From IMG/VR virus record IMGVR_UViG_3300011115_000879, positions 1 to 64,000 of that record: a DNA stretch of 64,000 nucleotides; one strand, given 5' to 3'. How positions within the stretch are numbered: the stretch's first letter is position 1; each line of letters begins with the position of its first letter. Both the position numbers and the translations under genes were made by a program. The notes below the pieces were generated by a model. The model was not told the origin of the DNA and searched no databases. It was given only the letters and a program-made list of their open reading frames with translations. The stretch comes from a virus. Below, in pieces: positions 10,683 through 49,363 of the stretch.

Positions 10683-11273
10683 ATGAATAGATTAGATCAA
10701 AAATTAAATGTATTGTATAGCACGTCAAGTGATATTAATGAACATCTATACACAATACAAAAATACTCTTCAGAATGTAATACTGTAGTAGAAATGGGAG
10801 TTCGAATCCCAGTCTCAACATTTGCTCTGTTAGCAGGAAGACCAAAAAAATTAACATCGGTTGATTTAATTCATCCTAACCAATTTGGTGGTGGTGACGA
10901 GCTTTTATTAGTTCAGGAACTAGCAGCAGAAGAAAATATTGATTTTGAATTTATACAAAGTGATTCACTTACTTATAAAATAGAAGAATGTGATTTATTA
11001 TTAATAGATACATGGCATACTTACAGACAACTTATAAGTGAATTAATAACACATCAAGATAATGTAAAAAAATATATTATATTACATGATACTACAAGTT
11101 ATGAAATAGAAGACGAAGCAAATTGGGTTCAATCACCAGAACCAAATTTTGTAGGTGAAATAAAACAAGGATTATGGGCAGCTGTTGAAGATTTTCTTTC
11201 AAATTTCCCAGAATGGATTATAGAAAAAAGATATATTAATAATAATGGATTAACAATCCTTAAAAGAAGGTAA
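10683..11273 (+). CDS. Class I SAM methyltransferase (Methyltransf_24-like)
   Basis: VEMGV, DLLLIDTWH, LHDT. Confidence 0.8.
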   Translation: MNRLDQKLNVLYSTSSDINEHLYTIQKYSSECNTVVEMGVRIPVSTFALLAGRPKKLTSVDLIHPNQFGGGDELLLVQELAAEENIDFEFIQSDSLTYKIEECDLLLIDTWHTYRQLISELITHQDNVKKYIILHDTTSYEIEDEANWVQSPEPNFVGEIKQGLWAAVEDFLSNFPEWIIEKRYINNNGLTILKRR

Positions 11274-11275
11274 AT

Positions 11276-12208
11276 ATGAAAAATAAAAAAATCTTCATTA
11301 CAGGAGGAGCTGGTTTTTTAGGGAGGAATTTGGTTAAGCGTTATTACAATGATAATGAAATAACTATTTATTCTAGAGATGAAGCCAAACATTATTATTT
11401 AAAAAAAGAATTTCCAAAAATCAACTGTATAGTTGGGGACGTAAGAAATTATGATTTATTAAAACGAGCCTCTGTTAATCATAATATAGGAATATTTGCC
11501 GCTAGTCTAAAGCAGATTGAAGCTATAGATCAAAATGTTGAAGAAGGAGTTAAAGTTATTATTGAGGGGGCTATTAATTCAAGACGAGTAGCAGAAGAAA
11601 ATAACTTTGAAGCAGCATGTTTTATCTCTTCAGATAAAAGTAGAGCTGCTACTACATTATACGGTGCTATGAAGTTTGTAGCAGGAGAATCATTTATAGT
11701 TAATGCAGAAAAATCTAATGTAAGATTAAGTACTGCAGTTTATGGTAATGTATTAAACAGTACAGGAAGTATTATTCCGTTAATATGGGATGCCATTAAA
11801 AAAGGATATAAATTAAAACTGTATTCTCCTCAAATGACTCGTTTCATGATAGATATAGAACAGGCAATTGATCTAATAGAATATGGATTACAAGTTACAG
11901 GTTATAACATTATCCCAAATTTAAAAAGTTTTAAAGTACAAGATTTATTTGAAATTTATAAAGAAGAATTTGGATTAGAATATGAATTAGGAGAACCTCG
12001 CATCTCAGAAAAACTTCATGAAATGATGATATCTAAAGAAGAAGTACCTCGTACAATATATAATCCAGAACATGATATATATTATATGCATTATAAGAAT
12101 ATTAATTCAAATAAATTCGATTGGGGAGAGTTTGCATCAGATATTACAGTAGTTAATAAACAAGAATTAAAAACAATTTTGCAACACTATGGATATTTTA
12201 AACAGTAA
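11276..12208 (+). CDS. NDP-sugar 4,6-dehydratase (PseB/CapD-like)
   Basis: TGGAGFLG, SRDEAK, ISSDK, YGAMK, YGNV, EKLHE. Confidence 0.88.
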   Translation: MKNKKIFITGGAGFLGRNLVKRYYNDNEITIYSRDEAKHYYLKKEFPKINCIVGDVRNYDLLKRASVNHNIGIFAASLKQIEAIDQNVEEGVKVIIEGAINSRRVAEENNFEAACFISSDKSRAATTLYGAMKFVAGESFIVNAEKSNVRLSTAVYGNVLNSTGSIIPLIWDAIKKGYKLKLYSPQMTRFMIDIEQAIDLIEYGLQVTGYNIIPNLKSFKVQDLFEIYKEEFGLEYELGEPRISEKLHEMMISKEEVPRTIYNPEHDIYYMHYKNINSNKFDWGEFASDITVVNKQELKTILQHYGYFKQ

Positions 12209-24938: not shown

Positions 24939-25010
24939 AGTCAGGTGGCGTAAATGGAAACGCCCCACCATAGTAGGTGGGAGATGTAGGTTCGATTCCT
25001 ATCCTGACCG
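24939..25010 (+). ncRNA. tRNA-like RNA (AGTCAGG family) with 6-nt anticodon loop
   Basis: AGTCAGG/CCTGACC; D arm GCGT..ACGC; CCACC-ATAGTA-GGTGG; GTAGG-TTCGATT-CCTAT. Confidence 0.72.
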
Positions 25011-25104
25011 CGCAAAAAACTATTAGGTGAAGTTTCCTTACCACGACAAATTCGTCCACTGTGACTATATCGTATGGGTTTTTGATACCTACTTTAATTT
25101 AGAT

Positions 25105-36584: not shown

Positions 36585-37376
36585 ATGTCAAACGAATTAA
36601 ATTCAACCGCAGTAATGTCTAACAACAGTTATTCATTAGATCAAATCAAGTCAATAGCTCCATCAGTGTTTACTGTTGATAAAGCTGCTCATTTAACGGA
36701 TAAGTATATCCAAACTCCAACATCCCGTGTTGTAGAGGATTTAATGGCTTTAGGATGGCAAGTAACTAAAGCACAAGAAGTTAAAGCACGTAAAGGTAAA
36801 GGATTCCAAAAACATATGGTTGTGTTTCGCAACCCAGATATTATGATTAAGGGTAAAGGTGGTGATGATTCATTCCCACAAATTATATTAACTAATAGTC
36901 ATGATGGTAAAGCAGCATTTAATTTTAGGGTAGGTATTTTCAGATTAATCTGCAGTAACGGTTTAGTTATTAGTGATGCTGATTTTAATAATGTATCTAT
37001 TCGTCATATTAATTATACATTTGAGACATTACAAACTAAAATTGGTGAAGTAATTACTAAATTACCTGGTTTAGTTGCTAAAATTAATTTATTCAAATCA
37101 ACTCAATTAAGTGAGACAGCAATGGCTGAATTTGCTATTAAAGCCGCTTCATTACGTACTAAACAAAGTACAAATGTAGTAGAATTATTAAGAGCAGAAC
37201 GTGACTTAGATAGAGGTAATGATCTATGGACTGTATTTAATCGTGTTCAAGAGAAAATAATTAGCGGTGGGTTTGGTTATGGTAGGAAAAATCGTAAGGC
37301 AAGGTCAATTAAAAACTTTCAACAAGATATTAAGTTGAATGAAGAATTATTTGAATTAGCCGAGACTTATCTATAG
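36585..37376 (+). CDS. DUF932/DUF945-family protein
   Basis: APSVF, KHMVVFR, LTNSHDG, GIFRLICSNGL, LWTVFNRVQE. Confidence 0.85.
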   Translation: MSNELNSTAVMSNNSYSLDQIKSIAPSVFTVDKAAHLTDKYIQTPTSRVVEDLMALGWQVTKAQEVKARKGKGFQKHMVVFRNPDIMIKGKGGDDSFPQIILTNSHDGKAAFNFRVGIFRLICSNGLVISDADFNNVSIRHINYTFETLQTKIGEVITKLPGLVAKINLFKSTQLSETAMAEFAIKAASLRTKQSTNVVELLRAERDLDRGNDLWTVFNRVQEKIISGGFGYGRKNRKARSIKNFQQDIKLNEELFELAETYL

Positions 37377-37382
37377 TAAAAT

Positions 37383-37416
37383 AAGGGGGATGGCAACGTC
37401 CCCCTTTTACATTTAA
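37383..37416 (+). terminator. Terminator hairpin overlapping the promoter motif
   Basis: AAGGGGGATG-GCAA-CGTCCCCCTT-TTACATTTA. Confidence 0.75.
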
Positions 37417-37433
37417 TCAAACAAAAATAAGTT

Positions 37434-37976
37434 ATGAAAAAAGTATTAGTAATTCATCCAAACGACAGTAGTACCGATTTTTTAAAACCGATATACGCTA
37501 ATATACCTAACGCTACTGTTATTAGAGGTGGGATGACTAGAGCTGATGTGGATCAAGAAATTATCAAGCATGATCGTATTATAATGTTAGGACATGGTTC
37601 ACCAGGTGGTTTATTTTCTATAGGTGAATTTGAAGGTAGTTATGGATTTATTATCAGTCATGGTACAGCAGATTTACTAAGAGATAAAGAATGTATATTC
37701 ATTTGGTGTAATGCAGATAAATTTGTTAAGGAACATAACCTAAAAGGTTTATATAGCGGGATGTTTATTAGCGAAGTTGGTGAAGCGTTTTATTGTGAAA
37801 CACCAGCATCACAAGAAGTAGTAACTGAATCGAATGATTATTTTGCTAATGAATTAGGTAAAGTAAGTAATTTAGATTTAAACGAAATACATAATTACAT
37901 CAAAACCAATTACGGTATATTAGCTGAGAGTAATGATGTAGCAAATTACAATAACAATAGAATATATTTAGTATGA
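37434..37976 (+). CDS. Hypothetical protein, possible caspase/gingipain-like (clan CD) fold
   Basis: RIIMLGHG and IFIWCNA spacing resembles a His-Cys dyad. Confidence 0.5.
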   Translation: MKKVLVIHPNDSSTDFLKPIYANIPNATVIRGGMTRADVDQEIIKHDRIIMLGHGSPGGLFSIGEFEGSYGFIISHGTADLLRDKECIFIWCNADKFVKEHNLKGLYSGMFISEVGEAFYCETPASQEVVTESNDYFANELGKVSNLDLNEIHNYIKTNYGILAESNDVANYNNNRIYLV

Positions 37977-38233
37977 TAATAACATTAATAGTTGTTTTAT
38001 TTGTAATAATTCTAGGAATGGGACGTCATATTAAGAAGATAACAGATCAATTAGAATTATTAGATAGAGAACAACATGATCAAAATAAAGAAATAGCAAT
38101 ATTAATGAAAAATCATTTAAGACATCAAGGAATGTTATTACAACATAGTGAAGTATTAATGTATTTAGCTGAACGAGATGAAACATTAAAGAAATATACT
38201 ATAAAATATTCAGGTATAGTAGGAGAAGCATAA
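37973..38233 (+). CDS. TM plus coiled-coil hypothetical protein
   Basis: N-terminal TM. Confidence 0.6.
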   Translation: MIITLIVVLFVIILGMGRHIKKITDQLELLDREQHDQNKEIAILMKNHLRHQGMLLQHSEVLMYLAERDETLKKYTIKYSGIVGEA

Positions 38234-38264
38234 TTTATCCATATTTATAAAAAACAAAAATCAT

Positions 38265-38435
38265 ATGGCATCAGCACAAACAGAAATGAAAGTAATTAGC
38301 GTATTATTAGAGGAAGCAATGGATAATGGATTAGAAGTAGAAGTTGTATATGCCGCCTTAAAGGCAATGAGAGAAGATGATGCTATTACACCAGCACAAG
38401 CGTTTCAGGTTGGTATGGATGAATGGGTTAAGTAA
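38265..38435 (+). CDS. 56-aa hypothetical protein (not in ORF track)
   Basis: MASAQTEMKVISVLLEEA...EWVK; ATATTTAT at 38241. Confidence 0.6.
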   Translation: MASAQTEMKVISVLLEEAMDNGLEVEVVYAALKAMREDDAITPAQAFQVGMDEWVK

Positions 38436-38518
38436 TCACATAAGCACTCAACATAAAAGATAAAGTGGCTAGGCAAAATTGCCTAGCTATCTTTATGTTA
38501 ACCAAAAAATAAAAAATT

Positions 38519-38710
38519 ATGAGTGTAAGATTAGTGCAAAAAGAAACAACGTACGAAGTAAATTTTAATGGTGATGAATATCAAGTCACAGTAATGGAAG
38601 ATAATATTAGTGTTGGATATACAGTTTATGATGTATTTGATGAGAATGGTGAGTTAGTAGAAGGTGATTTAGAAAGTGCAGTGATTAGTTATTTAGAAGA
38701 AAATAGTTAG
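38519..38710 (+). CDS. Acidic hypothetical protein
   Basis: Own hairpin-embedded promoter at 38472. Confidence 0.65.
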   Translation: MSVRLVQKETTYEVNFNGDEYQVTVMEDNISVGYTVYDVFDENGELVEGDLESAVISYLEENS

Positions 38711-38760
38711 GACGGCAAAATAAGAATCGTACATTCACGTTAACCAAAAAATAATAAGTT

Positions 38761-39591
38761 ATGAACCAAGAAAGTAAAAAAAGAGGTCGTCCGTCAAAAG
38801 TACAGAACGTTACCTATGTCCCGTCATTAATTGACTTTTCAAACATTACAAAGTTAAATGAACTTAACATTGATAAAAAGATGTTAGAAGTAATGAAAAG
38901 TGGTTTACCTATAGATGAGTTGTTATCTGAAGAAGGTGGTATACCATGTGCTTCAAATTACATGATGATCGGTGATCCAGGAGTAGGTAAAACTACAGTA
39001 TTATTAGATTTATTATCAGCAGTCCAAAACAAAGGTCGTAAATGTTTATTCATAAGCGGCGAAATGGGACGTAAACAAATGTTCAAATATACAGAACGAT
39101 TCAAGCAGTTCGGTATTATACAAACATTATTCATGGCTGATTATATGTCATATAACACTAAAGACACAATTGAACAAGTATTAAATATGGGATGGGATTG
39201 TGTGTTGATTGATAGTGCAGCTGAAATAATCGATGGTGTACGTGATGATAATGGATGGGATAGAAAAACAGCTGAGGCATGGTTCGTTGATATATGCATC
39301 AAGCATAATAAGGGTGAAAATGAAGGTACTAAATTTACATCATTCCTTGCCATCCAACAAGTAACTAAAGCAGGTGAATTTGTAGGTAGTAATAAATTAA
39401 AACATCTATTCGATGCTATGGGTGAAATGAGACGTCAATCCGAGAAAGAAGGCGGAGATACTTATATTACATTTAGTAAGAATAGAAACGGAAATGCAGG
39501 TATTAAATTCAATTATCAATTAAACAACGATTCAATATATTATGGTAAAGTGGTTAAAGAAGAAAATGAAGATGATAGTGAGGCAGAATAA
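38761..39591 (+). CDS. RadA/Sms-like RecA-fold ATPase with N-terminal AT-hook
   Basis: KKRGRPSK; GDPGVGKT; ISGE; LIDS; QVTKAGEFVG..LKHLFD; KNR. Confidence 0.8.
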   Translation: MNQESKKRGRPSKVQNVTYVPSLIDFSNITKLNELNIDKKMLEVMKSGLPIDELLSEEGGIPCASNYMMIGDPGVGKTTVLLDLLSAVQNKGRKCLFISGEMGRKQMFKYTERFKQFGIIQTLFMADYMSYNTKDTIEQVLNMGWDCVLIDSAAEIIDGVRDDNGWDRKTAEAWFVDICIKHNKGENEGTKFTSFLAIQQVTKAGEFVGSNKLKHLFDAMGEMRRQSEKEGGDTYITFSKNRNGNAGIKFNYQLNNDSIYYGKVVKEENEDDSEAE

Positions 39592-39628
39592 TAATCGTAC
39601 ATTCACGTTAACCAAAAAATATAAAAAC

Positions 39629-40450
39629 ATGAAAAAAGAATTCAAAGTAGGCGACAAAGTAGTAATTAGTAAAAAATCTAGATTCTATGGAGATCATTAT
39701 TCAAATCCAACAGATGTGGACGGCACAATCACTAAGATTAGAGATGATTATGAAGGTCCTTTTAATGTTTTAGATATTAAAGTAGAATGGGATAATGGAA
39801 TGAAAAATTCATACAGTGAAATTGATTTAGAATTGGCAAAACAACAGTCATACATTCACGATAACCAAAACGATAAAAATATGAATAAAGCATTTAAAGT
39901 AGGTGATAAAGTAATGATTGATAGTAGTTCCGAATACTATAGTGATAACGATACTTCAAATCCAAGAGATGTGGAAGGCACAATTACTGAAATTGAAGGT
40001 GAGGATTGGCTTGGTGGATTGGGTATTATTGTTAAATGGGATAACGGAAAAATAAATGGCTACAATAAAGTAGATTTAAAATTGGCAAAGAAAGAATCGT
40101 ATATTCATGATGAAGAAAAAATTAACCAACCATTAAAACCTAAAGTTATGATTAAAGCAATTACAATTACAGATTTAGATCAAATTAAAGCGTTATGCGA
40201 AGCTATTCCTGGTATTAAATCTCAAGTACAGGATATGTACCCTGAGTTATTTGAAGTACATAAAGCAGGTAATAGATATGTTGATGTGTATGGTACTGAA
40301 TTTATATTAGCAACTGAACAAGGTGCAGTAGCATTAGTTGATTTAGAAACAGGTAAAATAGGTAAAACAGTATATGTTGATGACATTAATGATGTTACAG
40401 AAGATGAAATGGAGTTAGTATATAATGACAAAGAGTATACTTTAGCTTAG
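39629..40450 (+). CDS. Fused protein: two tandem SH3/KOW-like repeats plus C-terminal domain, with internal in-frame starts at 39881 and 40148
   Basis: FKVGDKV..SNP.DV.GTIT.I..V.WDNG..N.Y...DL.LAK twice; each ATG follows a promoter motif. Confidence 0.75.
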   Translation: MKKEFKVGDKVVISKKSRFYGDHYSNPTDVDGTITKIRDDYEGPFNVLDIKVEWDNGMKNSYSEIDLELAKQQSYIHDNQNDKNMNKAFKVGDKVMIDSSSEYYSDNDTSNPRDVEGTITEIEGEDWLGGLGIIVKWDNGKINGYNKVDLKLAKKESYIHDEEKINQPLKPKVMIKAITITDLDQIKALCEAIPGIKSQVQDMYPELFEVHKAGNRYVDVYGTEFILATEQGAVALVDLETGKIGKTVYVDDINDVTEDEMELVYNDKEYTLA

Positions 40451-40530
40451 ATATATTATTGGTTAGGTGGGTGCAGAAATGCGTTCGCCTATCTTTATGC
40501 TTGGCACAACTAAAATCGTATATTCACGTT

Positions 40531-40980
40531 ATGGAATTAGAAAAACGAATAGAGCAATACACACCTGTAAAATATAATCCTTATTATTGGTGGCGTCGTT
40601 TCAAACAACGAGAAACAAAACATCCTTATACAATTCTACAAACCAGAATTGAACATGGTGATTTCGAAGTAAGTGATTACCATTGGTGGATGATGTGGGA
40701 AGATAAATTAGAGCAAGACGCTATATCTAAAGAACGTAACGTAGATAAACAACATGAGTTGAGAGGATTATATGGTGAACGTAAACGACGATTAGCAACT
40801 GACTTTGAAAAAGACGAAGCAAAGATTAAATCAGAAATGTATAAAGCATTTAGAATAGAGTTTAGATTAAACGAAACAGAACTAGAAGATAAAATGATTA
40901 AATTCGACGGAACATTAAGTGAATTTTATTATGAATTAAAAAGTAAGCAACAAAATAAGATAGTATCACTCACGCGCTAG
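40531..40980 (+). CDS. Hypothetical protein
   Basis: YNPYYWWRRF; start moved to ATG 40531 after the promoter at 40503. Confidence 0.65.
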   Translation: MELEKRIEQYTPVKYNPYYWWRRFKQRETKHPYTILQTRIEHGDFEVSDYHWWMMWEDKLEQDAISKERNVDKQHELRGLYGERKRRLATDFEKDEAKIKSEMYKAFRIEFRLNETELEDKMIKFDGTLSEFYYELKSKQQNKIVSLTR

Positions 40981-41017
40981 GCAAGACTACGTATATACAT
41001 TCATTCAAAATTAAGTT

Positions 41018-41098
41018 ATGATAATAGCATTAGTAGTATTATTGATCGTTGTAATTGTCAAGTATATTATATTTGAAATTAAAAATCCGGGAATTTAG
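41018..41098 (+). CDS. 26-aa single-TM peptide
   Basis: MIIALVVLLIVVIVKYIIFEIKNPGI between two promoter motifs. Confidence 0.55.
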   Translation: MIIALVVLLIVVIVKYIIFEIKNPGI

Positions 41099-41142
41099 GC
41101 AAAGTAAATTCATTACATTTAATCAACCAAAACGATAAAAGT

Positions 41143-41352
41143 ATGTATTTAATCAAATTAACACAAGTATCTAAGGCGTTTGTTATTAAAGATACTAATA
41201 CTCGAAGAGAGTATACAGTAACATGGCGTAACTATACACCTAATCCATGGTTTATTGAAGATGAATATGAAGTAGAAATAGATCAGGAAACGGCATTAGG
41301 TGAAGATTTAATAGTGTTAGTACAAGACCAATTTGATGATTGGGCAAAGTAA
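41143..41352 (+). CDS. Hypothetical protein
   Basis: Own promoter at 41098; stop codon inside the next motif. Confidence 0.65.
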   Translation: MYLIKLTQVSKAFVIKDTNTRREYTVTWRNYTPNPWFIEDEYEVEIDQETALGEDLIVLVQDQFDDWAK

Positions 41353-41389
41353 TAGTCATATATTCACATTAACGAAATAAAATAATAGT

Positions 41390-41635
41390 ATGGGTAAGAA
41401 GAAGATGAATAATATAATAACTCAGGACGAAACGAATGATTTACTTCAGCGGGTGAGTGACCTGGAATATATGACAACAACATTGATTAGGGATAATATT
41501 GAGTTGGCTCAATTAAGTAGTGCGATGAAATGCTTGGTTGGCATGTATGAATGTGATATTATTGAGCTGCAAGATGCGCGTTTTTTTGCGCGTTTAAAGC
41601 GCTTTTTTGCGCCGCTTTTTGGTGGTATTAAGTAG
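41390..41635 (+). CDS. Hypothetical protein
   Basis: Own promoter at 41343. Confidence 0.55.
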   Translation: MGKKKMNNIITQDETNDLLQRVSDLEYMTTTLIRDNIELAQLSSAMKCLVGMYECDIIELQDARFFARLKRFFAPLFGGIK

Positions 41636-42057
41636 TGTTTTTGTATCGCAAGGGTGACGAACAATTGTTATGTGTGTATAATTGGATTTTGTGTTAAGGT
41701 ATGTTGTACGTTGTGTATGTGGAATGTTCGTTATGTGGGTGATGTGGCGTGTTGTGGCAGGTACATTTTTAGCCTTGCCTCTCCAAACACTTTTTTAAAG
41801 CAAAAGATATATACGATTTTTTTAGCACAATTTTGTACGTACATTCACTGAGGTAATAAGTTCTTATATTTATCGACGTACAACAGCATTATTTTGTTAT
41901 AAGGAACCGGCCTCGCCACAAGTTGAACGTAACGCTAATAATACTCAGTACACCACATATTTTTTTTGCAAAACTGTTACATAGGTAACGGCTTTCCTAC
42001 TGCTTGAATTGGCAAGATTTTGTTACTACATTCACCACGAACCAAAAATTAAGTGTT

Positions 42058-42702
42058 ATGAGAATTATTGATAAAGATTTTATTGTGGGTGGACATAAAG
42101 TAGGTGTTTACCAAGCGTACGTAGATATCGACCCTAATTTTGTACCAATGGAGCCGGGTGTACGTGTTTTACCAGCAGCTTTTTTTTCACAGAAGGATTT
42201 TTTTACACTCAAACGCCGCTACTTACCCGGTGATAAACCAACGTTCCCACAAGGTGGCTATGAGGTGTTCGGATCGGGAGGTGAGGTTCGCAGCTACGAT
42301 CTAGACGCCGTCATTTTGTATCCAGAAACACGCGCTCAGAAGAAGATCATCGACGCAATGGCTCCAGCTGACCCGGATGCTCCAACTCGTGGGCGTAAGG
42401 CTTCAAGCACACCGAAAGAGATAAAGATAACAAGCGGAAGACGTGGGCGCCCATCACTCAGTCAAGAAGATAAAGCCGCAAAGGAAGAAGCCGCTGCGGT
42501 TAAGGCTTCAAAGTCGGGAGGTAAGCGAGGAAGGCCGGCGCGTGAAGGTGGTCCGAAACCAATGAAGGAAGCAACAGGCGGTAAACGTGGACGCCCTAGA
42601 ATGACCGAGGCAGTTATCGCCCTTAAAGTGGCGGATAAGGCGCTTCGAGCGAGCAAGTCCGGCGGTAAGCGAGGTAGACCAGCAAGTACAAAACGTAAGT
42701 AA
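42058..42702 (+). CDS. Multi-AT-hook DNA-binding protein
   Basis: RRGRP once and KRGRP three times in a basic Ala/Lys-rich tail; start moved to ATG 42058. Confidence 0.75.
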   Translation: MRIIDKDFIVGGHKVGVYQAYVDIDPNFVPMEPGVRVLPAAFFSQKDFFTLKRRYLPGDKPTFPQGGYEVFGSGGEVRSYDLDAVILYPETRAQKKIIDAMAPADPDAPTRGRKASSTPKEIKITSGRRGRPSLSQEDKAAKEEAAAVKASKSGGKRGRPAREGGPKPMKEATGGKRGRPRMTEAVIALKVADKALRASKSGGKRGRPASTKRK

Positions 42703-42707
42703 CAATT

Positions 42708-42731
42708 AGCGCTCGTAAGAGCGCTTTTTTT
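42708..42731 (+). terminator. Intrinsic terminator
   Basis: AGCGCTC-GTAA-GAGCGCT followed by a T run. Confidence 0.85.
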
Positions 42732-42788
42732 ATGCTCGTGTTTGTCACAACTACTGTTGTACATTCATGTTAACCAAAAATTAAGGTT

Positions 42789-42980
42789 ATGATTTACAAA
42801 TTATGCATTTCGAAAAACAGAGTACAGTACCTAAAACAACAACTAGGTGATAATATTTTTGTCACTGATGAGGTTAGAGAAGATAACCTAGCTAGTGTGG
42901 AAGTAACCATCAACGATGACATGGACGCACTGAGTTTGTTCCATGCTGGAGTAATGGTTGGAATGAACGGCTCAGTATAA
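42789..42980 (+). CDS. Hypothetical protein
   Basis: Own promoter at 42744. Confidence 0.65.
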   Translation: MIYKLCISKNRVQYLKQQLGDNIFVTDEVREDNLASVEVTINDDMDALSLFHAGVMVGMNGSV

Positions 42981-43047
42981 ATAAATTAGGGCGGGGCAAA
43001 ATAAATGTTGTACATTCACATCACACAAATAATTAAAAATTAAGGTT

Positions 43048-43371
43048 ATGAGCAAGAAAAAAACAGTAGTAGCACCAGTAGAAACAATCGTAGTTAACAG
43101 TGTAAAAAGAGGCCGCCCAACGCTAGAAGGATCAGCGCGCCAAGCTAAATTAGCAGCACGTGCGGAGCGAGTTGCAGCGGGTGGATCAGTTGAGCGTGGG
43201 CGCCCGAGTAATCCAACGAGTGCTCGTCAAACTCGTCTAGCGGCTAGAGCAGCTAGGCTCGCGAGCGGAGTTGAGGTCAGAGCCGGCCGTCCAAAAGGTA
43301 CAGGTAAAACGGTGGAGGTAGAGGTGAGTGTGGAGCCGGTAGTTGAGGTGGGTGTTGGGGTTGAAGCCTAA
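43048..43371 (+). CDS. AT-hook repeat protein
   Basis: KRGRP, ERGRP, RAGRP separated by duplicated SARQ..LAARA helices. Confidence 0.72.
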   Translation: MSKKKTVVAPVETIVVNSVKRGRPTLEGSARQAKLAARAERVAAGGSVERGRPSNPTSARQTRLAARAARLASGVEVRAGRPKGTGKTVEVEVSVEPVVEVGVGVEA

Positions 43372-43424
43372 CACCCGGGCACAGCCCGCTTCGTACATTC
43401 ACATCGAACCAAAAATTAAAAATT

Positions 43425-43580
43425 ATGTACAGTTTAGATTGTTCTTTTTACACAGCGGAATTTACATGTATCGGTGATTTAGTAACTCACGTTATGCTTT
43501 TAGGTATGGATCCGAATTATGAGATCACTAGAAACGGAAAAGGTATTGGTGAGCAAGCAGCTGATTATCTTCAGTTTTAG
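43425..43580 (+). CDS. 51-aa hypothetical protein (not in ORF track)
   Basis: MYSLDCSFY..GMDPNYEITRNG; own promoter at 43378. Confidence 0.65.
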   Translation: MYSLDCSFYTAEFTCIGDLVTHVMLLGMDPNYEITRNGKGIGEQAADYLQF

Positions 43581-43627
43581 GCACAGTTTTTTTTGTACAT
43601 TCACGTTAACCAAAAAATATAAAGTAT

Positions 43628-43966
43628 ATGAAAGTATCAATTGAGCAAGCAGTAGTAAAAGTAAATGAGTGTATGTCTTCTGTTTTTACCAAGAATGATG
43701 TACTGAATTTGTTACAGAGTATTGAAATGAAAAAGGAAAATCTTGTGACTAAGGAGATGTTAGTGACTTTTGTTACTGACTATGTTGAAACACAAGTTGA
43801 GCGGTTAGATGCTGGGGATATTTTAGATCTTAGTACAGCTGAGTTTGATTTGAATGGTTGTGAGTTAAGTTTAGAAAGTGTTGATATTGACACAAGAGAT
43901 TTCACTAGAAACATTTTAGGAGAGATTGACGAAGCAGTTGATACTTTCTTGAATTACGATCTATAG
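43628..43966 (+). CDS. Acidic hypothetical protein
   Basis: Own promoter at 43580. Confidence 0.65.
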   Translation: MKVSIEQAVVKVNECMSSVFTKNDVLNLLQSIEMKKENLVTKEMLVTFVTDYVETQVERLDAGDILDLSTAEFDLNGCELSLESVDIDTRDFTRNILGEIDEAVDTFLNYDL

Positions 43967-44031
43967 ATAACTTAGAGCGGGGCTCGTCAGAGTCCCGTTC
44001 TTATATTTAATCAAACCAAAAACAATTAGTT

Positions 44032-44223
44032 ATGAATGAGTACGCTTACAACCAGTTATTATCTTTGTTACAACAAGCAGCTGCGATAGCAGAGGAGAAC
44101 AAGGACAATGTTACCAATTTTGATCTCGAGGATCTGGGGCTGTCGCTAGAAGGGATCATCCAGGAGATCGAGGACCTAGGAACATTTGTGGGTGAGGGTG
44201 ATGATGAGGAGTACGATAACTAG
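44032..44223 (+). CDS. Very acidic small protein
   Basis: Own hairpin-embedded promoter at 43986. Confidence 0.6.
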   Translation: MNEYAYNQLLSLLQQAAAIAEENKDNVTNFDLEDLGLSLEGIIQEIEDLGTFVGEGDDEEYDN

Positions 44224-44232
44224 GGGGATAAA

Positions 44233-44304
44233 GCCGCGTTGGTCAAGAGGTTAAGACGCCTCCCTTTCACGGAGGAATCACGGGTTCGAGTCCCGTACGT
44301 GGTA
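44233..44304 (+). tRNA. tRNA-Glu(TTC)
   Basis: CCTCC-CTTTCAC-GGAGG; ACGGG-TTCGAGT-CCCGT. Confidence 0.95.
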
Positions 44305-44361
44305 CAAGTTTTGTTTGGCACAATCAATTTTATACATTCACATTAACCAAAAATTAAGACA

Positions 44362-44574
44362 ATGGAAAAATTATCAAATGCAATCGAAATGTTTTTGTTC
44401 GACATGATCCCATCATTTTTGTATGGTGAGACAATTAGTGGAGTACCGATGAGTCAGGTGTCCAGGGGCTTCAACACCACTCACCCGCCAGTCCAGCTAA
44501 GTGAATTTGAATGGATACAGGAGTTTAGAGTGGGTTCGCTCCACAGAGTTGAGCAACGGGTTTTTTTGGGATAA
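44362..44574 (+). CDS. Hypothetical protein
   Basis: Own promoter at 44317. Confidence 0.6.
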   Translation: MEKLSNAIEMFLFDMIPSFLYGETISGVPMSQVSRGFNTTHPPVQLSEFEWIQEFRVGSLHRVEQRVFLG

Positions 44575-44621
44575 GGCAACGCTTTTTTTGTACATTTATT
44601 ACGAACCAAAAACATTAAATT

Positions 44622-45050
44622 ATGTCTACAAGATCATTAATCGGAAAACAAAACGCAGACAAAACAGTAACGTTTATTTATTGCCACCATGATGGCTACC
44701 CTAGTGGGGTGGGTGATACGCTCATCGAGTCTTACTCCACACCAGAGCAGGTGGATGGTTTACTCGCACTGGGGGATCTGAGTGTACTAGGGAGTGAGCT
44801 GGGTGAGCAACAGGATTTTAATAAACACACCCGTGATTGGTGTTTAGCGTACGGAAGGGATAGGGGTGAGACGGGTACTGAGGCTCAAACAATCGATCAA
44901 GAGATGTACGTGCGTGAGAATTTGAGGGGTGAGGAGTATAAGTATATTTATTCACTAAGCAAGAACTGGGTTTGTTATGGAAATGATGATGATGAGGACG
45001 ATGAGGAGTTCACCATCAAGTATCCAACAACAGAATCCAGTACAACATAA
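44622..45050 (+). CDS. Conserved phage protein (MSTRS..IYCHHDGYP..AYGRDRGE type)
   Basis: Motifs as named; own promoter at 44575. Confidence 0.75.
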   Translation: MSTRSLIGKQNADKTVTFIYCHHDGYPSGVGDTLIESYSTPEQVDGLLALGDLSVLGSELGEQQDFNKHTRDWCLAYGRDRGETGTEAQTIDQEMYVRENLRGEEYKYIYSLSKNWVCYGNDDDEDDEEFTIKYPTTESSTT

Positions 45051-45078
45051 GTTCATACTTTAATTTTAATGGTTAACC

Positions 45079-45110
45079 GGGCCGGAGTTTCTACTCCAGG
45101 CCCTCTCTTT
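45079..45110 (+). terminator. Hairpin/terminator after the inverted leader copy
   Basis: GGGCCGGAGT-TTCT-ACTCCAGGCCC-TCTCTTT. Confidence 0.65.
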
Positions 45111-45165
45111 ATGTTTGTAAGGCAGAATTAATTATGTACATTCACGTTAACCAAAAATTAAAAAT

Positions 45166-45390
45166 ATGATTGTTAAAATTTATCATTACGATTGTTCTTC
45201 AAATGAATTATTAAATGTAGATGTTATTGAGTGTAAAACACAAGAAGAATGTGAGTTAGAGATTATAAAACATCACTACCAAATTGATTATGACAATTGT
45301 AATACGGATTTAAGTGAAGAAGAGTATATTGAGAAATATAAAGTTAGTGACTTACAGTTTTATGAGAACTATGATTATGAAATTTGTTAG
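45166..45390 (+). CDS. Acidic hypothetical protein
   Basis: Own promoter at 45121. Confidence 0.6.
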   Translation: MIVKIYHYDCSSNELLNVDVIECKTQEECELEIIKHHYQIDYDNCNTDLSEEEYIEKYKVSDLQFYENYDYEIC

Positions 45391-45435
45391 TCAGAATTAG
45401 TTATGTATATTCACGTTAACCAAAAATTATTAGTT

Positions 45436-45630
45436 ATGAAAAAGTATTTAGTTGTTTCGTCTGAAAATGGTAATGATTTTTACATTGTAAATGATTTAAA
45501 AGAATTGATTGAAGAAATGTATGAGTTTGAATTAGTACAAAACGGAGAAACGTTTGAAAGTGTGAGTGAAAAATTATATAGATTCTATCAAGTGTTTGAA
45601 ATTGATGGTGAAATTAAAGTATTAAATTAA
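45436..45630 (+). CDS. Hypothetical protein
   Basis: Start moved to ATG 45436 after the promoter at 45390. Confidence 0.6.
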   Translation: MKKYLVVSSENGNDFYIVNDLKELIEEMYEFELVQNGETFESVSEKLYRFYQVFEIDGEIKVLN

Positions 45631-45683
45631 ACGTGGGTAGTCAGAAATGACTACCTATATTTATTCAAACCAAAAATTAAACC

Positions 45684-45845
45684 ATGAAGCAAGAAAAAGA
45701 TTACGCGTTCCAAGTAGTAGTATTCCTAGTATTATTAGTGATAGCAACAACCAGCTGTAGCCGCTATAGAGCAGTAGGATCAGATGGTAGGTGTATGTTT
45801 AAAAAACAAACCAATTATCAAATGACTAGGATAATTCGATTATAA
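45684..45845 (+). CDS. 53-aa putative lipoprotein (not in ORF track)
   Basis: Hydrophobic stretch then TTS-C; own promoter at 45640. Confidence 0.55.
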   Translation: MKQEKDYAFQVVVFLVLLVIATTSCSRYRAVGSDGRCMFKKQTNYQMTRIIRL

Positions 45846-45903
45846 AGCCAGTTGGACGTCAAAACTAGCAGCGTACATTCACATCGAACCAAAAATTAAT
45901 GAT

Positions 45904-46074
45904 ATGGCAAACATGAGCTACTGCAGATTCGAAAACACATACAACGACTTAAAGGACTGCCTTGAACACATTAATGATGAATGTGAAAATGAACGTGATG
46001 AGCGTTACAGACTCAGAATGATTGAGCTATTAGCACACGTACAAGATTCAATCGATTCAGATTATATCGATTAA
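45904..46074 (+). CDS. 56-aa phage protein (NMSYCRFENT type)
   Basis: MANMSYCRFENTYNDLKDC; own promoter at 45858. Confidence 0.7.
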   Translation: MANMSYCRFENTYNDLKDCLEHINDECENERDERYRLRMIELLAHVQDSIDSDYID

Positions 46075-46132
46075 ATAATCAGGGCTAGGCAAAACCAGCA
46101 GCGTACATTCACGTTAACCAAATAATTAGAAC

Positions 46133-46219
46133 ATGAACGAATTAAAGATTAAAATTACAGGCGTTACAATGATGTTAGCCTCAACAGCGTATTTAATAGT
46201 TTATATGCTCAATAATTAA
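46133..46219 (+). CDS. 28-aa TM peptide
   Basis: MNELKIKITGVTMMLASTAYLIVYMLNN; own promoter at 46088. Confidence 0.5.
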   Translation: MNELKIKITGVTMMLASTAYLIVYMLNN

Positions 46220-46276
46220 CAGGGCGGGGCAGAACAATAATCGTACATTTACATCAACCAAAAAAATATAAAGTAT

Positions 46277-46432
46277 ATGAAACAGTTAATCGCTTACAAA
46301 CGCTTCACAATTAAAGTAGTATCTGGATTTATGTTAGGCTGTATAGTCCTGGATGAAGTAATTGGAATAATGATTGGACCAATCCTCATTGAAATTGACT
46401 TCCCCAAACGCGAATCAAGTAATACAATGTAA
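46277..46432 (+). CDS. 51-aa hydrophobic protein
   Basis: Own promoter at 46228. Confidence 0.55.
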   Translation: MKQLIAYKRFTIKVVSGFMLGCIVLDEVIGIMIGPILIEIDFPKRESSNTM

Positions 46433-46488
46433 TCGGGGCTAGTCAGAATAATAAACATACATTTACATCGAACCAAAAATTGAGTATT

Positions 46489-46701
46489 ATGAAATTATTA
46501 AGTGGAATTATCAGTGTAATATTAGGATTCATGTCGTTATTCATCATGTTCGTTAAGGCGAAAACGGATGTAGAAATGGGAGTGGGATTTGGAGTGTTAC
46601 TAGCAGCAATCATCTTTATGTGCTTTATGATCATGGAAGAACAGAAGCAAGAAGTAGAGCGCCTGCGTGGAGTAATACTGAAGAGTAAGGGTATAATCTA
46701 A
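46489..46701 (+). CDS. 2-TM protein
   Basis: ATG 46489 after the promoter at 46442. Confidence 0.6.
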   Translation: MKLLSGIISVILGFMSLFIMFVKAKTDVEMGVGFGVLLAAIIFMCFMIMEEQKQEVERLRGVILKSKGII

Positions 46702-46721
46702 TCCACAGTCGATAGGCGGAT

Positions 46722-46758
46722 AAGTAAGGTGAGCGAGAAATCGCTCGCCATCTTACTT
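46722..46758 (+). terminator. Strong hairpin/terminator
   Basis: AAGTAAGGTGAGCGA-GAAA-TCGCTCGCCATCTTACTT. Confidence 0.7.
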
Positions 46759-46793
46759 GGATACTGGGCTCCGGGGCCGTATATTTACTCCAC

Positions 46794-47113
46794 GATCACC
46801 AACGTTAGTCCTCCATCCACACTGTATTCTTAACGCCCGCTTGGACACTACGTTTGGTGATCTTCCTTATCCTTCATATATTTATGAATGTTAAGAATAT
46901 AGTGCGGAAATAAAGACTCCACTCACATTCCCCAACATCAAACCAAGTACACAACCAGCTGAAAGTGCTGGGAGTTCCCCTAGCGGTGGCGGTAGCTAGG
47001 ATCAGAGCTGAATTCACATTGATGAATTAGCCGGGTTAAAATAAGCACGTGACAACGTTCCACGGTTTATCAGGCCCCGGCGGAACGGCTTCCTGTTAGA
47101 GATACGAGCGGAA
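46794..47113 (+). ncRNA. Candidate structured non-coding element
   Basis: Preceded by TTG-N20-TATATTTA; two interleaved ~18-bp stems plus five further hairpins; no credible ORF. Confidence 0.5.
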
Positions 47114-47142
47114 ATATAAATACAATAACCCCAACCCACGTT

Positions 47143-47361
47143 ATGAATAATAAGCTCAAAAAATCACCATCACCGCTCCGTCTCCACAAATATACTCCAC
47201 CCGAACAAGCACTCATTAATTCCCTATACACCAACGGGCATCTTAAACCCGCAATGATGGAAGTATGGGACCAATTAAAAGCCGGTAATGAGGTTATCCG
47301 CCGCAATCAGCTCAACTTCCACTCACACATAGAACGAGTAATAAAGAACCAGGTAAAATAA
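47143..47361 (+). CDS. Hypothetical protein
   Basis: GTTATG start. Confidence 0.5.
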   Translation: MNNKLKKSPSPLRLHKYTPPEQALINSLYTNGHLKPAMMEVWDQLKAGNEVIRRNQLNFHSHIERVIKNQVK

Positions 47362-47398
47362 AAATTAACCGTCAGAATAATAAGCGTATATTCACGGC

Positions 47399-47632
47399 AT
47401 GAAAAATAAGAACATGACACCAGCAGTAGAAAAAGCGAATGACTTAATCGATGATTACTATAACATGTTAATGGATAATATAGACGATGAGTTCATTAGA
47501 CGATTAGTAGCTATACGGTGTGCATTAAAGGCAGTAGATGAAATAATAAACACGCTCACCAATTCATGGTGCGTGATATCAGATAAGGAAAACTGGGACG
47601 AGGTAAAACAACAATTAGAAAACAGCTATTAA
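47399..47632 (+). CDS. Hypothetical protein, MTP.EKA..AVDEII..W.EVK family
   Basis: Motif shared with 28186 and others; promoter at 47371. Confidence 0.65.
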   Translation: MKNKNMTPAVEKANDLIDDYYNMLMDNIDDEFIRRLVAIRCALKAVDEIINTLTNSWCVISDKENWDEVKQQLENSY

Positions 47633-47642
47633 ACCAACCAAT

Positions 47643-47849
47643 ATGAACTGGATAGAAGTAACAAAGCACTCAGACATCCCAAGTATAATCTACACCGATA
47701 GAATAAAAATACTAATTGAAGACGTTAACGGGTTCATAGGAGTGGGATACTGGAACTCATATGACTGGGTATTAGACACCTATCACCATGATATTGATGG
47801 TGAAATACGCTTCTATAAGATTAAACGATACGCACTAATAGAATTATAA
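47643..47849 (+). CDS. Hypothetical protein
   Basis: MNWIEV.. small phage domain. Confidence 0.6.
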   Translation: MNWIEVTKHSDIPSIIYTDRIKILIEDVNGFIGVGYWNSYDWVLDTYHHDIDGEIRFYKIKRYALIEL

Positions 47850-47867
47850 ACCATTAAACCAACCAAC

Positions 47868-48116
47868 ATGGAAAGAATAAACACAGCACCCACACCCACG
47901 TTTAAAGTAAATGACCGAGTCCAATTCTACACCCAATACAGCGAGCGAGGAAGTGCTCCAACAACAAGTACCATCGAGTATGGAATCATAGAGAAGATAA
48001 ACACCATCACAGCGGAAGTAAGAACACGAGACGGTAAATGGAAACTACGGAGGGGTGAAATGACCCACTACACCGATCCATTTATCGGGTGGGTGGATGA
48101 GGAACCCAGTAAGTAA
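47868..48116 (+). CDS. Hypothetical SH3/KOW-like protein
   Basis: FKVNDRVQF..GIIEKIN..AEV. Confidence 0.55.
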   Translation: MERINTAPTPTFKVNDRVQFYTQYSERGSAPTTSTIEYGIIEKINTITAEVRTRDGKWKLRRGEMTHYTDPFIGWVDEEPSK

Positions 48117-48471
48117 CTAGACGCCCAGCCTATAGATCCGAGGAGCGTGAGCCTTAGAGCTCGCGCTTCCTCTATTGAGATCGAGCCGATAGCGGTTGCG
48201 TGCGGCCCGATAGCGGGGTGGGTGCGGAACGGCCCCACGCTAATCGCGGTACATCGATGGGGCGTGTGCGGCGCGACAAAAGGTATGGGTATTCTCAACA
48301 CACACACGATCTTTAACTATCGACAGTATATACGCATATCCCCATAAACGAACCCCAAATTCCGAAATAACCCTTTCACCCCAAATTCACAAAATCCCAA
48401 CTCTAACTTTTAACAAAATTTTACGTGTCGGCAAGATATATACCGTATATTTATCACATAATACCAAATAA

Positions 48472-48712
48472 CATGACGCCGCTAGAAAAAGCCAATAGAA
48501 TAATTCAGGAATCTAAATTAAATCTTAAGTGGCACTACTATGATAATTTATCTAAGTACGATAAAATAAAAGTAATCAATTGTTCTTTGCTAGTAGTTAA
48601 CGAATTAATTGACGAAAGTCGAGAACAAGGAAATGTAGAACGTTTTAAATATTTTAGAGAAGTAAAAAAAGAAATCGAAAACCATGATACCAACAGAGAT
48701 ACTATTGACTAA
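48472..48712 (+). CDS. Hypothetical protein, MTPLEKA family
   Basis: Start moved to the MTPLEKA ATG after the promoter at 48430. Confidence 0.6.
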
Positions 48713-48854
48713 ATTAGCGTTTGAGGAATACGTTAAACGCATACATGATAGTAGCGCCGCAAAATATGGATTAACCGTTGAACAGTATCAACATGCCGTA
48801 GCTAGTGGTAGTATAGTTACTCCAAATACGAACCTTAATACCCAGCAAAAATAA
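48684..48854 (+). CDS. 56-aa hypothetical protein
   Basis: MIPTEILLTKLAFEEY..; fills the gap. Confidence 0.45.
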   Translation: MIPTEILLTKLAFEEYVKRIHDSSAAKYGLTVEQYQHAVASGSIVTPNTNLNTQQK

Positions 48855-48859
48855 TAGTT

Positions 48860-49363
48860 ATGTTAAAAGAAATTACACTCGAAGAAGCAAAACAATATCG
48901 TAAATTAAATGATTATGATTTATATAGTATGCATTTGGTTACGGCTTTTAGTAAACATAAAGATCCTAATGACGACCCAAAGTGGGATACTATAACATAT
49001 TATAGCGATATTAGAGGTGGAATTACTGATGAGCAAGGAGATTTAATTCATCCTCACTATGTTTATATTCTTACCAATCCTTCTATACCGGGTATTGTTA
49101 AAATAGGTCATACTACTCGTACAGTATATGATCGTGTGAAGGAAATTAATGCTGCCCCTGGTGTTATTTTTCCTTGGGAAATGCGTTTTACATATAAGTG
49201 TCCTAATGGTCGTATGCTTGAGGAAGAAATTCATTCACATTTACAAGATTTAGGTCTTCGTCCAAATAAAAGACGTGAAGGTTTTACTATTGACGTAAAT
49301 GACGCTATTAAAGTTATTGAGGATTTAGGGAAAAAATACACAATCGCATTATCAAATATATAA
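48860..49363 (+). CDS. T5orf172/GIY-YIG domain protein
   Basis: VYILTNPSIPGIVKIGHT..RV..LEEEIH..REGF. Confidence 0.8.
   Translation: MLKEITLEEAKQYRKLNDYDLYSMHLVTAFSKHKDPNDDPKWDTITYYSDIRGGITDEQGDLIHPHYVYILTNPSIPGIVKIGHTTRTVYDRVKEINAAPGVIFPWEMRFTYKCPNGRMLEEEIHSHLQDLGLRPNKRREGFTIDVNDAIKVIEDLGKKYTIALSNI

Follow-up and report, generated by a model that had tools for sequence, protein, structure and literature searches.

A putative anti-leader RNA element at the probable end of an early phage transcript

What is the role of an inverted copy of an early gene leader that lies directly behind the stop codon of an early phage gene? This question is raised by positions 45051–45116 of the virus record IMGVR_UViG_3300011115_000879 from IMG/VR, of which the first 64 kb out of 159.6 kb form the stretch under study (this whole stretch of DNA is called the window in the following). 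At ~33.8–48.5 kb the window harbors an array of ~35 small cassettes, and one leader is common to ~30 early cassettes. A first-pass annotation had taken the inverted leader copy and the hairpin behind it for a small RNA (sRNA) derived from a 3' untranslated region (UTR) that would be able to cover the start codon regions of many early mRNAs by base-pairing, and had seen in this pairing a possible reason for the conservation of the leader. On balance, we favor a reading in which 45051–45116 constitutes a conserved anti-leader RNA module, present once per genome, which would form the 3' end of an early transcript and mask translation starts, trans action on the leader family included. Transcription, termination, and any processing of this module, as well as its pairing in vivo and its effect on translation, are what we infer from the sequence.

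The inverted copy is present where the first-pass annotation had placed it. The sequence GTTCATACTTTAATTTTAATGGTTAAC occupies 45051–45077, immediately 3' of the TAA stop codon of the open reading frame (ORF) 44622–45050, and the leaders quoted as its counterparts at 38739, 42769, and 40129 could likewise be found. The announced GC hairpin and pyrimidine tail follow: the hairpin lies at 45079–45103, and the fold of 45045–45120 has a free energy of -20.5 kcal/mol (z score -3.3), whereby none of 200 shuffles was equally stable. The 28 nucleotides (nt) 5' of the hairpin, which we call the seed, are unpaired or weakly paired in this local fold. The features that make up the upstream cassette and the element are as follows.

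44575–44598, + strand: promoter-type motif GGCA-N12-TACATTTA of the upstream cassette, one of 39 copies in the genome; a promoter role is suggested by position and repetition
44622–45050, + strand: upstream early gene of 142 amino acids (aa), member of the family phrog_1987 of unknown function (E value 2.7e-30, residues 1–127), the stop codon of which adjoins the element
45051–45078, + strand: anti-leader seed, complementary to the whole 5' UTR (UUAACC...), the AUG, and 2–3 further bases of the early leader family
45079–45103, + strand: putative terminator hairpin GGGCCGGAGT-TTCT-ACTCCAGGCCC with a 10-bp stem, one bulged A, and the apex GU-UUCU-AC
45104–45116, + strand: U-rich tail TCTCTTTATGTTT of the putative intrinsic terminator, T-rich in all nine aligned modules

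The motif at 44575–44598 likely starts the transcript whose 3' end would carry the anti-leader element.

For the leader-pairing test, the seed (45051–45078) was run with RNAduplex against 27 start regions of the array, and dinucleotide shuffles were used as a control. The seed pairs with a mean of -12.5 kcal/mol and a best value of -21.0 kcal/mol, compared to a mean of -6.4 kcal/mol (standard deviation 1.1) for the shuffles, none of which (0 of 500) attained the observed mean. The pairing across early starts claimed at first pass is hence enriched over shuffled controls as far as the phage start regions are concerned. Among sampled genomic 28-mers the seed ranks at ~3 in 10,000, and among GC-matched ones at 1 in 1,000. 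When the whole + strand was scanned in steps of 4 nt (~40,000 windows of 28 nt), the top two windows were those starting at 45053 and 45049, followed by G-rich windows that pair via G.U and are only ~1.3 kcal/mol weaker (mean over five leaders). Because GGTTAACC is palindromic, the inverted match is to some extent trivial in its GTTAACC part. In each of the nine phages aligned below, the seed pairs with the leaders of its own genome better than shuffles do, with at most 0.5% of the shuffles attaining the observed mean in any of them. The complementarity between seed and leaders is not an artefact of AT richness.

The module consists of a 28-nt unstructured seed, a putative intrinsic terminator hairpin of conserved structure, and a U tail, whereby the seed is the complement of the family 5' UTR with UUAACC at its 5' end, an A/U-rich spacer, and the AUG. 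The mRNAs of Bacteroidota lack Shine-Dalgarno sites and rely on an open A-rich leader. In the proposed mechanism, the seed would exclude ribosomes by base-pairing with the leader and the start codon, and since ~30 early cassettes carry one leader, a single RNA could reach many early mRNAs in trans. In addition, it would pair in cis, namely with the leader of its own mRNA and, where read-through occurs, with the next gene's start. T4 shuts off its early mRNAs by RegB and RegA, and the effect of the module would be an RNA counterpart of this shut-off.

The genomic setting is the array of small cassettes, each of which is headed by G[GT]CA-N12-TAYATTYA, followed by a leader of the type CGTTAACCAAAAATTAAAA..ATG. 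The early leader overlaps promoter and start site; several cassette borders are composites of a stem-loop and a promoter. In the relaxed form G[GT]CA-N11-14-TAYATTYA the motif has 39 copies in the genome, located at 2407–48453 of the window and at 127305–157602. The spacing of 12 nt between the promoter-type box and the -7/-10-like element recalls the MotA-dependent middle promoters of T4 and not the -33/-7 layout of Bacteroidota. The genome encodes a GroEL-like chaperonin, a baseplate wedge protein, a thymidylate synthase, and seven tRNAs. All window ORFs of at least 150 aa are on the + strand, and the GC content is ~30%. The closest cultured relative is Flavobacterium phage vB_FspM_immuto with 46% aa identity in the baseplate wedge protein, which was the only route to a cultured relative; among GenBank phages, the region had no match by megablast or blastn. 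Because of its gene content and this nearest cultured phage, the genome is assigned to a T4-like myovirus of a Bacteroidota host.

Some further observations concern the array and the element. Window positions 42001–48000 have a GC content of 0.37–0.43 compared to ~0.30 elsewhere, and this GC-rich stretch is possibly a recent acquisition. The 142-aa gene, which has homologues scattered over jumbo phages and cyanophages, belongs to the GC-richer genes. A lone tRNA-Glu (ttc) lies within the early cassette array at 44233–44305, and ARAGORN reported a tRNA at 24939–25011, for which it gave a two-base anticodon (ag) marked as undetermined. The search for a loop partner yielded nine + strand occurrences of the apex complement GTAGAAAC, none of them beside the module, and at a second GTTTCTAC at 51201 no flanking hairpin was seen.

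Conservation of the module among related phages

Relatives of the locus were reached by DNA patterns; a protein-based IMG/VR search for loci with the 142-aa gene found none. A 21-mer of promoter and leader is present as an exact copy in six other IMG/VR contigs, and BLAST of the locus against five contigs (G001–G005; G and L numbers are our handles for contigs and loci) aligned the entire seed-to-leader block in three. The seed pattern occurred in 12 viral contigs, once in each, with the window's own contig outside the 12. Nine true modules emerged from this search; in the other four cases, which belong to unrelated phages, the pattern matched the normal leader of a gene on the minus strand. 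When the nine modules were aligned, the window's own copy included, the seed (TCATAC-TTT(T)AA(T)TTTTAATGGTTAA) showed no variation save for a 1–2-base difference in T-run length (window copy, L012, and L032), and 24 contiguous seed columns do not change at all; the hairpin apex GT-TTCT-AC is invariant as well. The stem has 10 consensus pairs, five of which show compensatory double changes. U.G pairs occur in L009, L012, L031, L032, and L033, where the minus strand would give A.C. Since these wobbles pair only on the + strand, since a U tail follows, and since the orientation of the seed is common to FopS-like RNAs (see below), the + strand RNA appears to be the object of selection.

A second search fixed only TTAATGGTTAA, i.e., the 3' 11 nt of the seed, and the apex. 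It led to 21 further phage-type modules in metagenome contigs, in all of which the unspecified 5' half of the seed is intact. Taken together, ~30 related phage contigs carry the module, all in one orientation, which bears out the conservation in related phages. In freshwater contigs from three other studies, with relatives that are ~92% identical, both flanking genes have many substitutions, and among the differences listed a single one (45077 C>A) falls within 45039–45110. A covariance model found one strong match per phage genome (61–74 bits) and only matches of at most 18.5 bits besides; the first-pass remark that no other inverted copy was found thus holds.

In this context, the reverse strand had to be considered, where the seed would simply be the leader and ATG of a gene.

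44955–45056, - strand: 33-aa ORF (MNLCCTG...), in antisense overlap with the 142-aa gene and judged a non-gene

This frame exists at 45056–44955, and the 25-mer pattern is a genuine opposite-strand leader in unrelated phages (L028/L035 and L029/L030). However, the frame extends over only two codons in L014 and four codons in L031, and the peptides are unrelated among the relatives. There is no minus-strand promoter motif upstream, where the hairpin adjoins, the window ORFs of at least 150 aa point the other way, and the hairpin wobbles suit the + strand only. The ORF was rejected as a gene and, because its frame is not conserved, this explanation, which the first-pass annotation had named among those that could overturn its proposal, is effectively refuted.

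The module is kept in very different surroundings. The flanking proteins are only 39–63% identical between phages. Upstream of the module, three phages, among them L032 and L033, have a phrog_1987 homologue (50–55% identity), three others have a member of a 70–85-aa family, and one has an HNH endonuclease. On the downstream side, the ORFs of the nine modules are mutually unrelated, save those of L009 and L034, and across the ~30 contigs the downstream slot holds at least 14 unrelated gene starts. The order of seed, terminator, promoter, and leader is the same in every module. In a contig of run X2 (and, over a shorter stretch of 29 letters, in X5), the same downstream gene follows a different variant of the hairpin, which argues for recombination within the module.

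Two side observations were made at these junctions. In L012, a 224-aa HNH endonuclease gene (10751–11426) ends one base 5' of the seed and has homologues in the window's genome at 1772–2401 and 138456–138776; it looks like a free-standing homing endonuclease that was inserted at the junction. Furthermore, the module often lies 0.1–2.5 kb from a contig end (L009, L012, L013, L014, and L031–L033), and its distance from the start is 2.4 kb in G004, the sole genome that is complete with terminal repeats. This could mean that repeats break the assemblies here, or that the array is located near the physical end of the genome.

It might be that the element is an ordinary terminator-promoter junction of the PeSL type, the upstream flank of which is a relic of an inverted leader (e.g., from cassette recombination) that is kept by descent or hitch-hiking and has no pairing function. 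The array is indeed made of stem-loop and promoter junctions, as are the hyperplastic regions of T4-type phages (PMC2839356, PMC4122927), these phages show a high conservation of promoter and leader DNA anyway, the runners-up of the genome scan are only slightly weaker than the seed, and exact-match searches are biased to invariant copies. Such a relic would, however, not be expected to have a stem rebuilt by compensatory changes, nor 24 seed columns and an apex that remain unchanged next to proteins of 39–63% identity. Single copy number per genome, constant orientation, and the persistence of the module while both neighbors are swapped speak against it too, as does its recognition by a model that was built from bacterial copies only (see below). 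We therefore regard a functionless relic as unlikely.

FopS-like elements in Bacteroidota

Control by small RNAs has opened up only recently in Bacteroidota, with GibS, FopS, and RbpB as examples. The FopS RNAs of Bacteroides thetaiotaomicron comprise 14 paralogues, which have a free 5' seed and a Rho-independent terminator and target the start regions of susC genes; one of the 14 is also derived from a 3' UTR (PMC11697453). The second pattern search described above also matched Bacteroidota chromosomes, and the matches fall into two groups. Elements of group 1, from Chitinophagaceae and Sphingobacteriales, have the form [small covarying hairpin]-UUUUCAUAGGAUAAGG-UUUAAUGGUUAA-[hairpin with apex GUUUCUAC]-UUUU. 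On their reverse strand, seven codons of an "ORF" are conserved, and beyond that its length varies from 8 to 69 codons. In group 2, UUAAUGGUUAA and a hairpin with the apex GUUUCUAC are located between a gene for a 472-aa MBL-fold/rhodanese protein and a small rhodanese gene in Chitinophaga-like genomes. No clear U tail was seen at the group 2 loci L178 4040–4110 (minus strand), L199 6065–6135, L253, and L263.

An alignment of phage and Chitinophagaceae copies yielded the common layout CAU-N(11-17)-UUAAUGGUUAA-hairpin(GUUUCUAC)-U tail. With a mixed covariance model, which was built from nine phage and nine bacterial copies, matches were found in 102 of the 151 sampled Chitinophagaceae genomes, with up to 12 per genome. 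The bacterial elements have the general form UUUU(U/C)CAU-N~20-GGUUAA-hairpin-U tail and occur in several seed sub-types (example loci: L041 9262–9335 on the minus strand, L214 4712–4775, L166, L109, and L276–L295). They match the Rfam model of FopS over its full length and in the same orientation with 20.5–27.3 bits, and the FopS consensus GUGUUUUUCAUgGUAUUAGAUUUAAGGUUAA is almost identical to a copy from Paraflavitalea. Since these matches stay below the gathering score of 56, the bacterial elements probably represent an uncatalogued FopS-like family.

A bacteria-only model from 20 copies, which had first been collected with a model containing phage copies, gave the phage module as the top match in four of four phage genomes (35–41 bits, E values 7e-5 to 2e-6), with the next matches in these genomes at 19–24 bits. 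Furthermore, the bacterial seeds pair with the phage leaders above their own shuffles (median z -2.9); thus, bacterial and phage seeds share a type of target. Overall, by layout and sequence, the phage element appears to be related to the FopS-type small RNAs of Bacteroidota or to have been captured from them. Other Rfam matches to it were only weak and terminator-driven (SorY, Spot 42). As a further step, we tentatively consider that T4-like freshwater phages of Bacteroidota captured a FopS-type small RNA of their host and retargeted its seed to the shared early leader, whereby translation of the early class would be tuned or shut off. Such a retargeted RNA might also engage in cross-talk with FopS-like RNAs and SusC-type targets of the host.

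SusC-type outer-membrane transporters often serve as phage receptors. It could thus be imagined that the module is a phage-borne FopS-type small RNA with host targets, e.g., the starts of SusC-type transporter genes, and that its match to the phage leaders is secondary. The likeness to the Chitinophagaceae family would fit this explanation, as would the action of FopS on susC start regions (PMC11697453) and the pairing of bacterial seeds with phage leaders above shuffles. However, the phage seed departs from the bacterial seeds exactly in the middle part, where the phage leaders match, and a U-run 5' of CAU, with which AUGAAAAA would pair, is missing from it. In five Chitinophagaceae genomes, the leader pattern TTAACCAAAA...ATGA was not enriched, and most of its matches are the small-RNA genes themselves. 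In one Chitinophagaceae genome, the search for host-type leaders, a class that the phage leader might copy, gave TTAACCATTAA at only ~2.4-fold over the control. All in all, mainly host-directed action seems improbable to us.

Possible cis and trans partners of the seed

The leader family includes a partner directly next to the seed, to which the following features belong.

45121–45144, + strand: promoter-type motif of the next cassette, located between the seed and the next leader, i.e., in the loop of a long-range helix; the order is the same in all nine modules
45146–45171, + strand: leader and AUG of the next gene, the predicted cis partner of the seed in read-through RNA (fold of 45040–45185)
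45166–45390, + strand: downstream 74-aa gene in a hypervariable slot, for which no homologue was detected among the relatives

For 45040–45185, the minimum-energy structure equals the centroid structure (-38.1 kcal/mol, z -5.1), and none of 200 shuffles is as stable. In this structure, the seed and the start region of the next gene (leader and AUG) form an interrupted helix of 22 bp, which encloses the terminator and the promoter, and the AUG at 45166–45168 pairs with the CAU at 45054–45056. Across the nine modules, 61–99% of the cis-leader bases pair with the seed. In L009 and L034, the complementarity reaches into the codons of the downstream gene (AAAUCGGUCAU versus AUGAGUGAUUU). The reverse complement of the conserved block reads as leader-ATGACCGATTT, and the downstream gene of L009 and L034 begins with ATGAGTGATTT, which suggests that the seed originated as an inverted copy of a gene start.

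These data could be explained by control in cis only, as known from T4: the seed would be the 5' arm that sequesters the next leader and AUG in read-through RNA, while transcripts from the promoter in the loop (45121–45144) would escape and be translated, with the consequence that the downstream slot would be expressed solely from its own promoter. The stable fold, the pairing of the next AUG in each module, the constant order of seed, terminator, promoter, and leader, the complementarity that enters downstream codons in L009 and L034, and the precedent of the T4 genes e, soc, 49, and I-TevI (PMC3014915) are in favor of this explanation. However, a terminator lies between the arms, so that limited read-through is expected and most upstream transcripts should lack the 3' arm. 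Because hardly any two phages have the same downstream gene (at least 14 unrelated starts), no particular gene would be controlled in cis. Moreover, the seed is invariant whereas the cis leader is variable, and only three of the nine genomes offer the seed no better partner than the cis leader. In L032, for instance, other leaders reach -19.8 and -18.3 kcal/mol compared to -10.4 kcal/mol for the cis leader. The 3' part of the seed, AAUGGUUAA with its GGUUAA, is kept even where the local downstream leader has no UUAACC (L031, L032, L033, L071, L072, and L121), which argues for partners beyond the neighboring gene. Cis control would also leave the invariant apex and the likeness to free-standing bacterial small RNAs unexplained. 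Taken as the sole function, it is in our opinion rather unlikely.

The same arms could also be read at the DNA level. Bacteroidota are rich in invertible promoters, and the seed and the next leader are inverted repeats (~22 of 25 nt) that flank a promoter; a recombinase might flip the 67-bp terminator-promoter segment between them. This segment would be very short, though, relatives differ widely in how similar their repeats are (-10 to -25 kcal/mol), and the wobble pairs indicate selection on RNA, not on DNA. An invertible switch was rejected, as all ~30 copies have one orientation and no strand-switch joint was found in the contigs of four runs, where rare forms could escape the contigs; we consider it highly improbable.

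Coming back to the anti-leader RNA with action in trans, several points weigh against it. First, no promoter motif of either type was found between the upstream coding sequence and the seed; therefore, the upstream mRNA would have to be processed to release a separate small RNA, or else the element would act as the 3' end of the whole mRNA. Second, folding of the upstream mRNA up to the terminator predicts that the seed is largely paired with the 5' leader of this mRNA (P 0.5–0.74) and may therefore not be free for trans action. Third, the AUG of the next gene is predicted to pair with the CAU of the seed at P≥0.99 in nine of nine modules, which would equally fit action in cis. Fourth, the element and its targets would be transcribed from one class of promoter, with a single copy set against ~30 target species, which is awkward for a stoichiometric shut-off. 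Regarding conservation, both pattern searches demanded exact matches, so that the apparent invariance is inflated, and the promoter and leader DNA of the array is well conserved anyway, as the 21-mer that is exact in six contigs illustrates. Regarding the relation to FopS, the collection of the 20 bacterial copies was not independent of the phage copies, as mentioned above, and the Rfam model of FopS (RF04319) gave no match at E≤1 in 37000–49000 and at E≤10 in 45030–45125 of the window, nor at E≤10 in 11400–11500 of the relative L012. Because this model does not detect the phage element, we do not file it as a FopS member. The sRNA reading of the first pass is partly supported: a 3'-end RNA of the + strand that would pair across many early starts is backed by conservation, covariation, and the likeness to FopS, whereas a promoter of its own is not visible.

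If the favored reading is true, the module would be a compact case of global translational control, in which one antisense seed is directed against a shared leader, and it would hint that phages borrow small-RNA scaffolds from their hosts. The invariant 25-mer and the hairpin apex would serve as a practical tag by which these uncultured phages from lakes can be recognized, and as a pointer to hosts resembling Chitinophagaceae. Judging from the look-alikes that two thirds of the Chitinophagaceae genomes sampled contain, the spread of FopS-type RNAs in the phylum would go far beyond what Rfam shows.

Comparison with known systems

To our knowledge, no phage-encoded member of the small RNAs of Bacteroidota that acts on the phage's own early genes has been described. 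Like FopS, the phage element has a hairpin (here with covariation) and a U-rich tail after a free stretch, and it pairs in silico across start regions in nine of nine relatives. As in FopS and GibS, the free stretch contains the anti-start codon UCAU, with GGUUAA 14–16 nt further on. FopS is multicopy and mostly free-standing with its own sigma-ABfr promoter, whereas the phage element is encoded by the phage in a single copy with no promoter of its own visible. Its seed fits the phage's own leaders instead of susC starts of the AUGAAAAA type, and the apex of its hairpin is GUUUCUAC in contrast to GuGaa in FopS. FopS also associates with the RRM protein RbpB, whereas the phage genome has no RRM gene, i.e., it gave no RRM_1 match for an RbpB-like gene. 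The elements from Chitinophagaceae and Sphingobacteriales (e.g., L041, L214, and L291–L293) resemble the phage element in that UUAAUGGUUAA or a GGUUAA variant lies directly 5' of a hairpin with the apex GUUUCUAC, followed by a U tail, and in that CAU is found 11–17 nt 5' of UUAAUGGUUAA. The Chitinophagaceae elements differ in that they are multicopy and often free-standing, carry a promoter-like block upstream as well as a small covarying hairpin on the 5' side, have another middle part of the seed, and show a U-run before CAU.

In T4, start regions of the genes e, soc, 49, and I-TevI are sequestered in early or read-through transcripts (PMC3014915). The phage module resembles this arrangement since its upstream arm pairs with the start region of the next gene as the dominant structure, and since a putative promoter motif (45121–45144) lies between the arms in nine of nine modules. 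In the T4-type arrangement, the gene's own transcript escapes sequestration because the promoter sits between the arms. The phage module differs by the terminator inside the helix and by a controlled gene that is not conserved, while the 5' arm is invariant and fits the whole leader family. With the PeSL cassettes of T4-type hyperplastic regions, which consist of a stem-loop and an early promoter (PMC2839356, PMC4122927), it shares the terminator stem-loop directly 5' of an early-type promoter and the position at the border of small variable ORFs that are swapped between relatives. In contrast to PeSLs, of which there are many per genome and which are not described with an anti-leader, the phage module is unique and has an extra invariant seed of 28 nt.

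A further parallel is the c4 antisense RNA of the phages P1 and P7, which is reportedly encoded upstream of its target, on the same strand and in the same transcript, and is said to complement the downstream ribosome-binding region and to act in cis and in trans. It reportedly folds like a tRNA, is excised by RNase P, and regulates a single operon (icd-ant). The phage module is like c4 in that the antisense segment lies upstream in the same transcript as its start-region target, but the two have no sequence relation. The module is of a known kind, namely a FopS-like antisense RNA that would mask start regions, in a new setting and form.

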